This document shows, in pieces, positions 9,821 through 62,682 of a stretch of DNA of 64,000 nucleotides. Both the position numbers and the translations under genes were made by a program. Location of the stretch: sequence record NC_019500.1. The stretch is one strand, 5' to 3'. This stretch comes from Escherichia phage Bp7. Each line of letters starts with the position of its first letter. The stretch's first letter is position 1. The notes beneath the pieces are model-generated. The model did not search any database, was not told the DNA's origin, and saw nothing but the letters and a program-made list of their open reading frames with translations.

Positions 9821-10455
9821 ATGTCTAAAATTACTTATATCATCAAAGCTTCTGAAGACGCCCTGAATGAAAAAACGGCTTCGATCTTAGTACATATCAT
9901 CAAGCATAACTTCATCACTTCAGGCGAAGTCCGTGAAGCCCTGAGTGAGCAATTTAGTGCTGCGGTAGTTAACTCTAATATCGGTGTATTAATTAAGAAA
10001 GGATTCATCGAAAATCTGGTGACGGACTAGTGGCTACAGGTGAAGCAATGGACCTAGTTCAAAAAGCTGCTGACTTGTTCGCTTCTGAAAATGCTCCAGA
10101 GATGTTGGAAAAACGTAAAACGCGTAGTTCACGTGGTGTTACTCCTGAAATGGTAACACTGGCTGATGAAGTTAAAGCTTTATTAGAAGACCGTATCGAG
10201 ATTCGTGAAATTGCTGAAAACCGTAGCAACCTTGAAGTTCGATTCGCTAAACGTACCAACGGTATTCGTCAAATCGAAGTCCGTCGTGATGGAATGATGC
10301 GTATCTTCGGTTATAATATGACTGATAAAGAAAAACAAGTGTTTACTTCCTTGAATCTTGATGTTAAGATTAAGACTGGTGGTAAGAATACTTATATCGA
10401 CTTCCAAAACGTATCATCTGAAGTTATCAAAACCGTAACCAACGCAATTATCTGA
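9821..10455 (+). CDS. motA: MotA middle-transcription activator; reading frame needs a 1-nt correction at the A-run 10011-10014 (ORFs 9821..10030 and 10030..10455)
   Basis: N-terminal ORF MSKITYIIKASEDALNEKTASIL...NSNIGVLIKKGFIE and C-terminal ORF ...SENAPEMLEK...KRTNGIRQIEV...MRIFGYNM match T4 MotA domains; the +1 frame across the junction reads KSGDGLVATGEA, continuous with the T4-like sequence. Confidence 0.75.
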
Positions 10456-24770: not shown

Positions 24771-25420
24771 TTAAGATTCGCATGCCACCAAACAATAACC
24801 GTATGGTGAACGGCAAAAGTGTATATTCCCTATATTTGATGTTAAAGCATCATTTCAACGCCAAATACGACGTTATCAAATACAACTGGGTCATGCGAAT
24901 CTCTGATACGGCTTATCAAAAACGTCGTGACAAATATTTCTTTGAGAAATTGAGTGATAAATACACTTTGAAAGAGCTTGCTCTTATATTCATGAGTAAC
25001 TTGGTAGCTAACCAAGACGCATGGATTGGCGACATCAGTGATGCTGACGCCTTAGTCTTTTACCGAGAATATATCGGTAGACTTAAAAGAATAAAACAAG
25101 TTTTTGAGGATGATATCAAAAACATTTATTATTTTAGTAAGAAAGTGGAAGTTCAAGCGCTTTCTGAAATTTTTGATTATAATAAAAAAGTTAACTCGAG
25201 CTATATTTTTAAGCTCCTTCAATCGAATGTTATTTCATTCGAAACGTTTATTTTGCTTGATTCATTTATGGATATAATTGATAAGCACGATGAAAAGACT
25301 AACGATTTAGTGTGGTCTAAGTATTCGACTAAATTAAATGCTTACAAAAAAATTCTTATAGTAGATTCTATTGAGGCTCGTAAATTGTTCATTGAAACAA
25401 TTAAGGGTTGTAAATTTTGA
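24767..25420 (+). CDS. 59: gp59 helicase-loading protein
   Basis: 217 aa (same as T4); KSVYSLYLM.K.H.N.KYDVIKYNW.MR.SD.AYQKRRDKYFF.KLS.KY.LKELALIF.SNLVANQDAWIGDISDADALVFYREYIGRLK almost identical to T4 gp59. Confidence 0.9.
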   Translation: MIKIRMPPNNNRMVNGKSVYSLYLMLKHHFNAKYDVIKYNWVMRISDTAYQKRRDKYFFEKLSDKYTLKELALIFMSNLVANQDAWIGDISDADALVFYREYIGRLKRIKQVFEDDIKNIYYFSKKVEVQALSEIFDYNKKVNSSYIFKLLQSNVISFETFILLDSFMDIIDKHDEKTNDLVWSKYSTKLNAYKKILIVDSIEARKLFIETIKGCKF

Positions 25421-26052
25421 ATATAGTTTATAAAATGACTTGGCTTAATCGTCAGGCTAATAATATTAAGCCGTTTTCGTACATAGGTTCTAAAACTAAT
25501 TGTACTTTTGAAAATGGCGTGATTATTGACTGTAAAGGTAAAGAGTATTGGACCTCTTGCGAGCAATCAAGATTTAAAGAGGCCATCGAAGAAGAAAAAC
25601 CTATTGTTGAAATTTTGGCTATAACGCCATTTGATATTGTTATTAATATTGAACGTTCAGAACAATTGGAAGTTCAAGCTAGAGATAATGATGATTATTT
25701 TAATTTGGTTTATGCCGGTGGCGGATTTGGAGTCTTTGGATGCACTCACCCAGCCAAACGTCCTGAAGTTAGAGCCCATATGAAAGCTGCTAACTATATG
25801 AATCAACCCGATTACCGTCCTTGGAAAACTTCTAGAGCAAACCCTTTAGATTGGATGCTTAGTGATATTGCTTATACTAATTATTGTATAATTAATTCTA
25901 GTGGAAGAGCTTGTGGATGGAGGCGTCTCATTAACTCTGGTATAAATGTTAGTGAAACTACATCAAAGAGTATGATTAAACAATTTAATGAGGGTTGGGT
26001 TCCTAATGATGACCCTGAATTCATTAAGTTAAAAATGCTTTATTCGAAGTGA
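25417..26052 (+). CDS. ORF at the segG position; possible degenerate GIY-YIG-type homing endonuclease (start TTG 25417 or ATG 25435)
   Basis: inserted between 59 and 32 where T4 carries segG; N-terminus IVYK...PFSYIGSKT loosely resembles GIY...YIG; overlaps gp59 stop. Confidence 0.4.
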   Translation: MNIVYKMTWLNRQANNIKPFSYIGSKTNCTFENGVIIDCKGKEYWTSCEQSRFKEAIEEEKPIVEILAITPFDIVINIERSEQLEVQARDNDDYFNLVYAGGGFGVFGCTHPAKRPEVRAHMKAANYMNQPDYRPWKTSRANPLDWMLSDIAYTNYCIINSSGRACGWRRLINSGINVSETTSKSMIKQFNEGWVPNDDPEFIKLKMLYSK

Positions 26053-27536: not shown

Positions 27537-27798
27537 CATGACTAAAGATGATTTCCTGGATGCAGTAGAAAAAGCCAGCGAACAATTCGAAGTTATGGGT
27601 GTACGAGTCCATAAAGACAGAAATTACGGGCTCGATATCCAAACGTATTCATTATGGCTTGTAGGTGAACATAGTCTTGTAACCACCTTAGTTATGGGTG
27701 TTGATGCACAACCTTTACTGGTTAAATTCAGAAGTATGGAAAAAGCTACCAAAGAAATGATTAAACTTGGTAAATGGCTCGATAAAATTCAAAAATAA
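27526..27798 (+). CDS. hypothetical protein (about 87-90 aa; frd.2 position)
   Basis: overlaps upstream stop; alternative ATG 27538. Confidence 0.45.
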   Translation: MEFNMTKDDFLDAVEKASEQFEVMGVRVHKDRNYGLDIQTYSLWLVGEHSLVTTLVMGVDAQPLLVKFRSMEKATKEMIKLGKWLDKIQK

Positions 27799-32507: not shown

Positions 32508-32561
32508 TAAAATCCGATTATAATTGACTCACGGATGAGTCACTAACAAAATGAGAATAAT

Positions 32562-33236
32562 ATGTCTACAGTTTTTAATACTACCCCAGTTGATGTTTTA
32601 GTCGAGCCGATGTTCTTTGGTTCAGGATTAGGTATCGCCCGTTATGATATCCAACGTCATAAAGTGTTCGAAGAGCTTTGTGAAAAGCAACTATCATTTT
32701 TCTGGCGTCCAGAGGAAGTTAACTTGATGATGGACTCTGCGCAGTTAATAAGCTTCCAGAGTTCCAACAAAATATATTTACCAATAACTTGAAATATCAG
32801 TCGCTTTTGGACAGTATTCAGGGCCGGGCTCCTTCTGCTGCACTCCAAGCCTTGATTTCTGACCCTAGCCTTGATACATGGGTGGCAACATGGACCTTTA
32901 GTGAAACTATTCACTCGCGTTCGTATACCCATATCATGCGTAACCTCTATACAGACCCATCTAAGGTATTTGATGAAATTCTGTTAGATGACGCTATCAT
33001 GAAGCGCGCTGAATCCATTGGTCGTTATTATGATGACGTTATTGAGAAAACTAGATATTGGCAGAATGCTAAAGCTGATATTGAGTACCAAAAAGAAATT
33101 AACGCAGACGAAGATGATATTGAAGATGCCATAGAGCATGAGATGTATTGGAAACGTGAACTGATGCGTTCTCTTTATCTCTGTTTGCATGTTATCAATG
33201 CCTTAGAAGCTATTCGTTTTTATGTATCTTTTGCGT
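32562..33236 (+). CDS. nrdB: ribonucleotide reductase small subunit, exon 1; apparent 1-nt frameshift near 32723-32750 (ORFs 32562..32792 and 32789..33238)
   Basis: N-terminus ...FFWRPEEV in one frame; downstream NrdB motifs [35 protein letters not shown] in the -1 frame; exon ends with U at 33236. Confidence 0.8.
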
Positions 33237-33320
33237 AAAATGCGCCTTTAAACGGTAACGTTTATCGAAAACTCCTTTAATTGCTGGAAAGTCCTTTATA
33301 GGAAAACTAGCAGCCAAGGT

Positions 33321-33354
33321 TTTGCTTGCACCTTTAATTAGTATAATATAAATA
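33321..33354 (+). promoter_or_regulatory. candidate middle (MotA-box-like + TATAAT) and late (TATAAATA) promoters upstream of the intron endonuclease ORF
   Basis: tttgcttgca 33321-33330, TATAAT 33342-33347, TATAAATA 33347-33354, SD aagagga 33367-33373. Confidence 0.35.
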
Positions 33355-33381
33355 TGATTATACTTTTAAGAGGATGCACAA

Positions 33382-34188
33382 TTGAACTATAGAAAAATTT
33401 GGATAGATGCTAACGGACCTATACCTAAAGATTCTGATGGAAGAACATACGAAATCCATCATAAAGACGGTAACCGTGAAAATAATGATTTAGATAATTT
33501 GATGTGCCTTTCTATACAGGAACATTATGATATACATTTAGCTCAAAAAGATTACCAGGCTTGTCATGCTATAAAGCTTAGAATGAAATATTCTCCTGAA
33601 GAAATTTCTGAATTAGCTTCTAAAGCCGCAAAATCTAGAGAAATCCAGATTTTTAATATCCCTGAAGTACGAGCTAAAAATATTGCCTCTATTAAATCTA
33701 AGATAGAAAATGGTACATTTCATCTTTTAGACGGTGAAATACAGCGTAAATCTAATTTAAATAGAGTTGCATTAGGTATACATAATTTCTCTAGAGGAGC
33801 CCATGCAAAAGTTAAAGAACGCAATATTGCAGCTATAAAAGAAGGTACTCATGTATTTTGCGGTGGTAAAATGCAGTCAGAAACTCAATCAAAACGGGTA
33901 AATGACGGTTCACATCATTTCTTGTCAGAAGACCATAAGAAAAGAACATCAGCAAAAACATTAGAAATGGTTAAGAACGGGACCCATCCTGCACAAAAAG
34001 AAATCACATGTGATTTCTGCGGTCACATTGGTAAAGGTCCTGGATTTTATCTAAAACATAATGACAGATGTAAATTAAATCCAAATAGAATTCAATTGAA
34101 TTGTCCATATTGTGATAAGAAAGATTTATCACCATCAACATATAAACGATGGCACGGCGACAATTGCAAAGCAAGGTTCAACGACTAG
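33382..34188 (+). CDS. HNH-family homing endonuclease (I-TevIII-like), intron-encoded; apparent TTG start
   Basis: 268 aa; N-terminal HNH motif EIHHKDGNRENNDLDNLMCLS..EH and C-terminal Cys/His-rich region (CDFCGH, CPYCDK); lies in the nrdB intron as I-TevIII does. Confidence 0.8.
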   Translation: MNYRKIWIDANGPIPKDSDGRTYEIHHKDGNRENNDLDNLMCLSIQEHYDIHLAQKDYQACHAIKLRMKYSPEEISELASKAAKSREIQIFNIPEVRAKNIASIKSKIENGTFHLLDGEIQRKSNLNRVALGIHNFSRGAHAKVKERNIAAIKEGTHVFCGGKMQSETQSKRVNDGSHHFLSEDHKKRTSAKTLEMVKNGTHPAQKEITCDFCGHIGKGPGFYLKHNDRCKLNPNRIQLNCPYCDKKDLSPSTYKRWHGDNCKARFND

Positions 34189-34324
34189 TCTTCGGACGTA
34201 GGGTCAAGCGACTCGAAATGGGGAGAATCCCTCTGGGATTGTGATATAGTCTGGTCTGCATAGTAATATGTAGCAGTTCATAAGAGAACGGGTTGAGAAT
34301 TAGCGAGCTCAATCGAACATAACG

Positions 34325-34827
34325 GTACCTTTAACTTCCATAAGAACATGGAAATCATGGAAGGTAATGCTAAGATTATGAAGTTCATTGCACGTGATGA
34401 ACAGCTCCACCTTAAAGGCACCCAGTACATTATTCGTCAGCTCCAACTTGGTACTGATGGCGACGAATGGGTTAAAATTGCTCAAGAGTGCGAACAAGAA
34501 GCAGTTGATATTTTCATGGAAGTTAACCGTCAAGAAAAAGAATGGGCCGCTCACCTGTTCAAAGATGGTACTTGCCCTGGATTAAATACTCAGAACATGG
34601 GTGCTTTTGTCGATTACCTGACAGTTTCTCGTATGAAGCAATGTGGCTTACCGTGTCCTATTACTGATGCTCCTACTCGCCATCCTTATCCTTGGATTCG
34701 CGAATACCTGAACTCTGATGCTGTACAGGCTGCTCCTCAGGAAGTGGAAATCAGTTCTTACCTTGTAGCACAAATTGATAACGATGTTGATGAAAAAGTA
34801 ATGGCATCGTACAAGAAATATTTTTAA
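34325..34827 (+). CDS. nrdB: ribonucleotide reductase small subunit, exon 2
   Basis: ELMEGNAKI...ARDE.LHL.GTQ...C-terminal APQEVE.SSYLV.QID; in frame after splicing. Confidence 0.8.
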
Positions 34828-60175: not shown

Positions 60176-60403
60176 TTAGAAATCTTCCTCTTCCTCGTCG
60201 TCCATCGACTCCAATTCAGCTCTCTTACCAGCCAATGCATCACGCACGCTAATATCATCCGAATCACGAAGTTCGGCTTCCTTACTACGAGTTTTGTAAT
60301 ACTTTTCCAATTCCTTCAGACCATCCATAGTCTGACAAGAACCAATTTTAGCCATGAAGCTTTCAATAGATGCTTCCTGAATAACTTCTTTAAAGGTTTT
60401 CAT
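60176..60403 (-). CDS. UvsW.1 small acidic protein
   Basis: 75 aa (T4 UvsW.1 76 aa) with acidic C-terminal tail DDEEEEDF. Confidence 0.6.
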   Translation of the reverse strand: MKTFKEVIQEASIESFMAKIGSCQTMDGLKELEKYYKTRSKEAELRDSDDISVRDALAGKRAELESMDDEEEEDF

Positions 60404-61182
60404 AATATTTCCTCGAAAAATTTGGTAACCATTTTACCGTAATGCACATTAGGATAACCGGCTTTAATGGCTTCTTTTGTAAATTTACCAACTTTAAGCT
60501 TTCCTGTATTTATCCAAAGCTCTTTAAGCTCATCATACATTAACCAGTGTGGATATTTCTTAGCCAAAGTAGCTTGCCAATTTTTAGAATGGTCCTCAGA
60601 CCTAAACGATTTCTTTACACCTTTATTGGCTTTGCCAGCTTTTGAACACGTTTCATAATCTCCGGCTTTAATAGGTGTAAATCCTTTCATTGCTTTAGAC
60701 CTTTTGGCTATGGTCTCTTTGGATTGCTTGGAGCCTTTATTTTTGGTCCAAGCCTTTTCTAAAGCTTTTAATTTGGCTTCTGTTAATCCAACTTTAGCCA
60801 TAGCTTTTCGGTGTATTTCTCTTCGTTCATCAGTCCATTCATAAGAACCGTTTGTATTACCAATCATGGCTTCGCTTATTAATCTAGAAGCATTTTCTTT
60901 TAAAATGGAAATAGACCTAGAGCTTATCTCATTTAATCTTTTGCCACATGTCATACCAAATGCGGCACGCCATAATTTTCCACCTTGAGCTTTAGCCAAG
61001 ATTATATGGCCCAAAATATGTTCCCTAATAGTCAATGCAACTAAATTGTTAGGGTCATCGGAACCACCTATCGACTTAGGAATAATATGATGAATTTCGA
61101 TTTTACAGGGCGCAGTAGCTTTGGTCCATCCTCTGGACCTAGCATTCTCTATTAAATCATCGTAAATTTTCTGATAATTCAA
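60400..61182 (-). CDS. free-standing HNH homing endonuclease inserted between uvsW and uvsW.1
   Basis: 260 aa; N-terminal HNH motif CKIEIHHIIPKSIGGSDDPNNLVALTIREH; basic C-terminal DNA-binding-like region; start and stop overlap both neighbours. Confidence 0.75.
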   Translation of the reverse strand: MNYQKIYDDLIENARSRGWTKATAPCKIEIHHIIPKSIGGSDDPNNLVALTIREHILGHIILAKAQGGKLWRAAFGMTCGKRLNEISSRSISILKENASRLISEAMIGNTNGSYEWTDERREIHRKAMAKVGLTEAKLKALEKAWTKNKGSKQSKETIAKRSKAMKGFTPIKAGDYETCSKAGKANKGVKKSFRSEDHSKNWQATLAKKYPHWLMYDELKELWINTGKLKVGKFTKEAIKAGYPNVHYGKMVTKFFEEIL

Positions 61183-62682
61183 AGCTGCACCTCTTTCATA
61201 ACATAATTAAATTTCTCGTCGGCGTATCGTTGTATACGTTCCAATCCATGTTTCAGGCAATAATTTAAATGAACATATTTCTTTTTAGAATCTTTAGATT
61301 TAGGGCGGACTCCCATATCATCCACGAGGTCCCAGACTTGGGCCACTTGTTTGCTATCGTGCTTACGTAGAACACGCCCAATTGTTTGCAGAACAATGAT
61401 TTTAGATTTTACGCCGTGAGCAAATACAACGTGGTGAAGGTTCTTAACGGAAATACCAGTAGAGAACACACCATAACTTGCCACAACAATAATACCCTTA
61501 CCATTTTCCGCCATTACTTTCAGAGCATTACGCGTTTCGGTATTAACTTCACCTGATACGTAATAAACTTCTTTATGTTGCTCTTTAACCATTTCAAAAA
61601 GAGTTTTACCGTGTTCGATGTTTTTAAACATCAGGAATACGTTCTCTTCTTTCTTAGCGAGTTTAACAGCTAAATTAGCAACCCATTTATTACGACGAGT
61701 AGCCTTAGTAATGACCTTGATTTCTGATTGGTAATCTTTACCTTTCATCTTAACAGTGAATTCGTCTGGGTATCGAAGGAAAATACTGTTGATTTTAAGG
61801 TCGGTAACCTGTCCTTCTTCCATTAACTGGGAAGTGGATACCGGCTTAAACACATCACCAAACAAACCCATATATTGCATTAAATTAGCTTTACCATCTT
61901 TTAAAGAACCAGACAAACCGAATTTAAACATACAGTTGGTTAGGCCTTCGATGATAGTAGAAATAGATTTACCTGTAGCCAAATGGCATTCGTCGTTCAT
62001 AAACATACCGAACTGAGCAAACCATTCTTTAGGTTGCTTGATAGCAGTTTGATAAGTTGAAACGTAAATCATTGCATCAGAATCACGAGCAGTACCTGAA
62101 CGAATACCAAGCATTGCTGCTTTAGGGAACAATCGATAATCGATGAAGTCATTAATCATCTGGTCGACAAGTGCAGTAGTAGGAACCAGAATAAGGATTT
62201 TACCTTCATAGTTCTCAACGTAATATCGACTCAGGAGCGCCTGGATTAATGATTTACCTGCGGATGTAGGTAAATTCAGAATTGCACGACGTTTTGTCAG
62301 GCCGTTGTATACGGCTTCATTCTGATACCAATGAGGCTCAATCTTGGTAGACCCTGAATAAATTTCTTGAGAAGCTACCCATGAATCAAAATCTTCACGA
62401 GAAATATCTTCCTGTTCAAGAATACGCGGGTCAATCCACAGAGAATATTCAAATTGTTCAGCGAACTTTTTAATTTGAGGGACAAGTCCATAAGGGCAAG
62501 TTTACGGCAGTTACGTAATCTAGAAGAAGAAGACTTCCATCCCATTGCCCATAACGAAATTTAGGGTTGAATTTATATCCATCGGCTTCAAAGCTAAAAT
62601 AGTCTCTGAGTTCGTAGAATGTGGATTCATCACACTCAATACGAACATGACTAAAATTATCGAAATGTACTTGAATTTGCAT
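61179..62682 (-). CDS. uvsW: UvsW helicase (SF2); reading frame needs a 1-nt correction at the G-run 62494-62496 (ORFs 62470..62682 and 61179..62159)
   Basis: N-terminal ORF VHFDNFSHVRIECDESTF.ELRDYFSFEADGYKFNPKFRYG.WDG matches the T4 UvsW N-terminus; the -1 frame continues with PYGLVPQIKKF...NLPTSAGKS (Walker A), DECH, QTIGRVLR. Confidence 0.8.

Follow-up and report, generated by a model that had tools for sequence, protein, structure and literature searches.

The nrdB gene of Escherichia phage Bp7 (NC_019500.1), as it stands in the 64,000-nucleotide stretch of DNA analysed here (the window), is interrupted by a group I intron and, within its first exon, by a change of reading frame. The question that this locus raises is whether the frame change belongs to the phage, as a mutation, a recoding site or a split gene, or only to the record of its sequence. 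The source of the window is a T4-type myovirus of the Dhakavirus group, and the first 25 kb of the window share ~95% identity with phages LHE83, ABTNLS3 and PSD9. The nrdB exons are likewise Dhakavirus-like, with ~95% identity to KIT01 and ~80% to WFL6982; the phage collection does not contain the window as a record of its own, and its best match over nrdB exon 1 was 92%. The ATG of nrdB, at 32562, lies downstream of nrdA, from which it is separated by a spacer of 54 nt. The features discussed are collected in Table 1.

Read literally, the frame that begins at this ATG (frame 0) yields an ORF of 76 amino acids (32562..32792), and the part of its product past the NrdB match is unrelated to NrdB. 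Frame 2 is open from 32723 into the intron, and overlaps frame 0 by 70 nt (32723-32792). With the NrdB of ABTNLS3 as the tblastn query, residues 1-61 were matched in frame 0 at 32562-32744 (96.7% identity), residues 63-225 in the other frame at 32747-33235 (98.8%), and residues 227-392 at 34327-34824 (99.4%). Since only codon 62 is missing from the exon 1 matches, the two-frame pattern is not a chance overlap of ORFs. A sequence-only reading of this DNA had placed the N-terminus of NrdB in frame 0, with its stop at 32790-32792, and the continuation in frame 2, with an overlap from 32723 on. The ORF, its translation and the tblastn alignment of both frames to NrdB bear this out. It had also taken the frame break to be additional to the group I intron, and both are indeed present in the sequence, the intron (33237-34324) being separate from the break.

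Table 1. Features of the nrdA-nrdB region and of the other frame breaks, in window coordinates
Feature	Position	Strand	Basis or remark
nrdA (RNR large subunit), intact, 751 aa	30252..32507	+	ORF
nrdB exon 1 part 1, frame 0: codons 1-61 and first two bases (TT) of codon 62	32562..32746	+	tblastn, alignments
TAA closing frame 2 upstream	32720..32722	+	translation
Frame-break site: TT, versus TTT/TTC (Phe62) in relatives	32745..32746	+	alignments
nrdB exon 1 part 2, frame 2 (-1 relative to the start): codons 63-225 and first base of Cys226	32747..33236	+	tblastn, Pfam PF00268
TGA ending frame 0	32790..32792	+	overlaps TTG 32789, the first possible frame-2 start codon
Group I intron, T-even nrdB type, 1088 nt	33237..34324	+	98.7% identity to the WFL6982 intron
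Intron ORF, 268 aa, I-TevIII-type HNH homing endonuclease	33382..34188	+	Pfam HNH_3 PF13392, 48.7 bits
nrdB exon 2: last two bases of Cys226 to residue 392, and stop codon	34325..34827	+	tblastn
70-aa conserved hypothetical ORF: +1 (G to GG) and -1	6621 (+1), 6673 (-1)		tblastn/alignment; window-specific
motA, split into 69-aa and 141-aa ORFs	9821-10455, break ~10011-10015		A5 to A4; window-specific
Small ORFs with altered C-termini (last few codons)	38060, 41291		window-unique +1 C, -1 T; upstream of pseT; gene 31.2-like
uvsW N-terminal region: seven extra bases and clustered non-synonymous substitutions	62495-62515	-	window-specific

The DNA around codon 62 was aligned with that of Dhakavirus phages KIT01, QL01, JS98, ABTNLS3 and LHE83, the Tequatrovirus RB51 and the Mosigvirus WFL6982. 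Where the relatives read CA(A/G)TTTAATAAG, the window reads CAGTTAATAAG and is one T short after 32746. Every aligned relative has CA(A/G)-TT(T/C)-AAT-AAG at this place and the window CAG-TT-AAT-AAG, so that the missing base is the third position of the Phe62 codon. The single missing nucleotide that the sequence-only reading had suspected near ttaataag is thus this T. As written, the mature mRNA would not hold one continuous frame, the frame changing after 32746, and one base restores it: with a T added there and 33237-34324 spliced out, a continuous sequence of 1179 nt codes for an NrdB of 392 amino acids, the length of NrdB in all relatives. These alignments support, at the sequence level, the earlier description of the nrdB frame break.

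In the corrected frame, nrdB differs from that of KIT01 at 59 codons synonymously and at 3 non-synonymously. This ratio points to strong purifying selection on both sides of the gap, with no further decay. With normal selection on either side, the gap must be either extremely recent or absent from the phage. Two readings of the local sequence were rejected. One was that the closest relatives share the gap, as the BLAST table, with 695 versus 695 bases, might suggest; the alignment rules this out, and the spans are equal because an extra A at ~32548 offsets the missing T. The other was that the break lies in a patch of low-quality sequence. The neighbouring differences are nearly all synonymous and in part match the Mosigvirus WFL6982, and on this pattern the differences flanking the break are real divergence or recombination, not bad sequence. 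The extra A itself, in the 5′ untranslated region of nrdB at 32548 (AAAA versus AAA in relatives), lies 14 nt before the ATG and can mask the nrdB frameshift when coordinates alone are compared.

The corrected and spliced protein has the features of the beta subunit of a class Ia ribonucleotide reductase (RNR). It matched Pfam PF00268 at 125 bits (cut-off 33.6). The frame-2 fragment alone reached 44.5 bits, and the literal 76-aa ORF gave no Pfam match. Against E. coli R2 (1piy/1rib), the corrected NrdB aligned over its full length (residues 3-387; phmmer E 5e-126), and the motifs of the iron ligands and of Tyr122, including ARDEQLH, are present in the alignment. Here we take the diiron ligands and the radical tyrosine to be D84, E115, H118, Y122, E204, E238 and H241 in the numbering of E. 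coli R2. QL01 and IME281 encode NrdA proteins identical to that of the window, and in both of these phages an intact, intronless nrdB of 392 codons lies directly downstream of nrdA.

The gap was then sought in other sequences. A 121-nt query centred on the site is covered by 892 phage records. In the best 25 of these 892, the match is one base longer than the query across the site, and the same was found in 59 of 59 records that span the site in an even sample taken down the full ranking. With a degenerate pattern, the TT form was found in none of the viral contigs and the TTT form in six; a 36-mer specific to the window just downstream was also found in none of them. A metagenome scan that allowed either form returned three contigs, all three with the extra base. 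The gap was not seen in any other intron-bearing nrdB record examined, and exact look-ups of the products of the 76-aa ORF, the intron ORF and the exon-2 ORF returned no record in the collections searched. Judged from these comparisons, the nrdB gap is unique to this record among the sequences searched.

Two ways in which a gapped gene might still be used were considered. One is that ribosomes join the two frames by programmed -1 frameshifting, or another form of recoding, at CAG-UUA-A, and so produce a full-length NrdB. The 70-nt overlap of the frames would allow this. If ribosomes slipped by -1 after UUA, the product would read Q-L-N-K-L-P, which departs from the conserved Q-F-N-K-L-P at one residue, and the trans-frame peptide would contain MMDSAQLNKLPEF. 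Nevertheless, between 32715 and 32795 there is no slippery heptamer of the X-XXY-YYZ type, the longest run being A4. The 103 nt downstream (32748-32850) fold with -14.6 kcal/mol, no better than shuffled sequences (z = +1.03), which speaks against a stimulatory structure. The two-frame arrangement, whose presence in relatives would have argued against the sequence-only reading, was found in none of the 59 phage records sampled, the 6 viral contigs or the 3 metagenome contigs; it is absent from every relative, very close ones included. An evolved signal is also not expected in a sequence that is exactly one base away from an ordinary ORF. Programmed frameshifting in E. coli dnaX and in the G/GT genes for phage tail-assembly chaperones likewise uses overlapping frames that jointly encode one protein. 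It differs from the case at hand in having a slippery heptamer, a stimulatory structure and conservation in relatives, and in yielding two functional products in a set ratio, whereas frame 0 of nrdB here would yield a 76-aa stump. We consider recoding at this site very unlikely. The broader proposal, that the phage DNA is truly gapped in nrdB, motA and uvsW and that full-length proteins are made by an unconventional -1 recoding at sites with no slippery sequence (in nrdB, say, at CAG-UUA-A), is just as improbable.

The other way is a split gene, in which a 76-aa N-terminal peptide ends at the TGA at 32790 and the C-terminal fragment re-initiates at the overlapping TTG at 32789 (TTGA). It is true that the first start-type codon of frame 2 overlaps the frame-0 stop, but no Shine-Dalgarno sequence precedes this TTG, and the second part has no usable start. 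The overlap exists because the intact gene reads AAC-TTG-AAA (N-L-K) there, as it also does in KIT01. Furthermore, the two products would lack the conserved residues 62-76, just before the Asp iron ligand, and no relative is organised in this way. A split nrdB is therefore the least probable of all the readings, close to negligible. Transcriptional slippage, which requires long runs of A or T, was rejected at a site where the longest run is A4, and bypassing of the gene-60 type does not apply, the conserved parts adjoining each other without a gap.

The window was also screened for other frame breaks, using the 101 annotated ABTNLS3 proteins as tblastn queries and searching LHE83 and JS98 with the same protein set. 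Five breaks were found in the window, four of them specific to it. LHE83 had one, at which ABTNLS3 is the odd one out, and JS98 had none; genome-specific breaks were thus absent from LHE83 and JS98 with this protein set. The fifth break of the window, near 27796 (A6 versus A5), was considered as an error of the window and discarded: LHE83 and JS98 share the window form, and ABTNLS3 is the odd genome. The most telling of the others lies in motA. Over 131 nt, QL01 is the same as the window save for one missing A (99.2%, 132 versus 131 bases), and the frameshift falls at codon 64. In T4, deletion of motA is lethal and its point mutants are leaky (PMC2988021), so a true null frameshift in a viable phage is implausible. 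The motA break is very probably, indeed almost certainly, an error in the sequence.

The remaining breaks vary in nature. At the uvsW site the window has 121 nt where all 12 best database matches have 114, and the frame is broken; this lesion differs in kind from the single-base gaps. In the 70-aa conserved hypothetical ORF, two indels 52 nt apart (6621 and 6673) shift the frame and then restore it. Several of the indels unique to the window are changes of homopolymer length. An artefact would be expected to leave further breaks in conserved or essential genes of the record that comparable genomes do not have, and such breaks were found. What goes beyond the sequence-only reading is that the nrdB break is unique to this record and lies amid other unique breaks, including that in motA.

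In the same part of the window as uvsW, between uvsW and uvsW.1, an ORF of 260 amino acids on the minus strand (60400-61182) carries an HNH-type motif, IEIHHIIPKSIGGSDDPNNLVALTIREH. The ORF is absent from ABTNLS3 and JS98, and probably codes for a free-standing homing endonuclease. A second ORF, of 211 amino acids (25417-26052), is found between genes 59 and 32; ABTNLS3 is empty at this position, and LHE83 carries a gene annotated as a homing endonuclease there.

The other interruption of nrdB is the intron, whose boundaries were deduced by comparison with intronless homologues and with the exon annotation of WFL6982, together with the U...G rule that group I introns follow. Exon 1 is accordingly taken to end at 33236 and exon 2 to start at 34325, and the predicted junction restores ...VSFA-C-TFNF..., the insertion falling within the Cys codon at the known nrdB site. 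At the gathering score (50), Rfam gave no intron match. Below that score, RF00028 matched at 34033-34273 (33.9 bits, E 1.2e-6), over the 3′ half of the core only. The 268-aa ORF splits the catalytic core and separates its halves. Homologues of this ORF are annotated as 'Intron-associated endonuclease 3', and over 3.2 kb the region shows ~85% identity to many intron-bearing T4-type phages. The arrangement resembles the T-even nrdB intron with I-TevIII in what can be read from the sequence (the same gene, the same insertion point and an HNH ORF within the intron). It differs from the T-even hosts of that intron in that it lies in an nrdB of Dhakavirus type whose exon 1 has a one-base gap. I-TevIII is full-length in phage RB3 and truncated in T4.

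No counterpart of the intron exists in the Dhakavirus relatives compared (KIT01, QL01, JS98, ABTNLS3, LHE83 and IME281), and parts of the flanking exon follow the Mosigvirus sequence. Over its last ~75 nt (33160-33236), exon 1 resembles WFL6982 more than Dhakavirus. Immediately before the missing base, ~25 nt (GGACTCTGCGCAGTT) agree with WFL6982 at nearly every position; they form part of a stretch of ~60 nt that diverges from Dhakavirus (coding positions ~127-185, 32688-32746). The 3′ edge of this Mosigvirus-like recombinant patch thus coincides exactly with the missing base. Intron homing between genera is a well-known process, and these tracts suggest homing with co-conversion, by which a Mosigvirus-type intron with a full-length I-TevIII-type endonuclease would have entered a Dhakavirus backbone and left short donor-like exon tracts. 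In LHE83, a free-standing homing endonuclease gene (33097-33738) lies between nrdA and nrdB, where the window has only the 54-nt spacer; it is another mobile element that targets the same nrdA-nrdB locus.

Two explanations of the gap carry real weight. The one we favour, as probable, is that the gap is a single-base miscall in the assembled or deposited sequence, by which one T of the TTT of Phe62 was dropped. The phage would then most likely have an intact exon 1, TTT having been recorded as TT, and the I-TevIII-type group I intron would self-splice out to give a normal 392-aa class Ia RNR beta subunit. The other, clearly less likely but a serious possibility, is a real and very recent one-base deletion through which nrdB has become a pseudogene, be it in this isolate or in its laboratory stock, with the phage relying on the NrdAB or the beta subunit of the host for aerobic deoxynucleotide synthesis. 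Spontaneous real frameshifts also favour short homopolymers, and a TTT run is a common spot for them. Nor is the stretch of generally low quality, nearly all substitutions near the break being synonymous. The gene has newly acquired a homing intron, and the break borders on a donor-like gene-conversion patch, circumstances under which repair synthesis could err; a repair error at the recombination junction is conceivable. In addition, a list of the auxiliary metabolism genes found in T4 relatives includes both nrdA and nrdB (PMC2993671), so the loss of nrdB could be tolerated and a real knock-out would be viable.

Against a real deletion stands the lack of any other decay in nrdB (the 59 synonymous versus 3 non-synonymous codons relative to KIT01). 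The partner gene nrdA is intact, and its protein is the same as in QL01 and IME281, phages with an intact nrdB, which also supports an error. Moreover, the gap occurs in none of ~900 related sequences, and the record also contains the motA break, which is not plausibly real. Since the motA gap, also of a single base, is very probably an error, and the nrdB gap is a lesion of like kind, a fault in the sequence is the simpler cause to assume for both. Because the gap is unique and sits among other unique breaks, including that in motA, the frame break in nrdB probably belongs to the record rather than to the phage. We infer that the phage DNA has the base and that only the record lacks it, and most likely the gap is not a biological feature. 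It resembles the single-base indel errors of deposited phage genomes in that a short run is one base short, conservation of the gene is perfect on either side, the change is unique to the record and other unique breaks, in essential or conserved genes, accompany it. It differs from the classical homopolymer undercall in that the run, TTT to TT, is very short. In phage DNA, CAGTTTAATAAG or CAGTTCAATAAG at the nrdB site together with A5 in motA would mark an artefact, and CAGTTAATAAG a real mutation.

If the gap is an error, its consequence is one of annotation only: nrdB, motA and uvsW would have to be called intact or flagged as low-quality, and the record would be unfit as evidence for pseudogenes or recoding. 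The dispensability of the phage RNR small subunit is already known in T4-type phages. A real gap would be an ordinary mutation of recent date that turns a dispensable gene into a pseudogene, and the phage would be one more isolate in which the RNR small subunit is dispensable. The suggested homing of a Mosigvirus-type intron into a Dhakavirus-type nrdB, a side observation, would hold somewhat more biological content than the gap.
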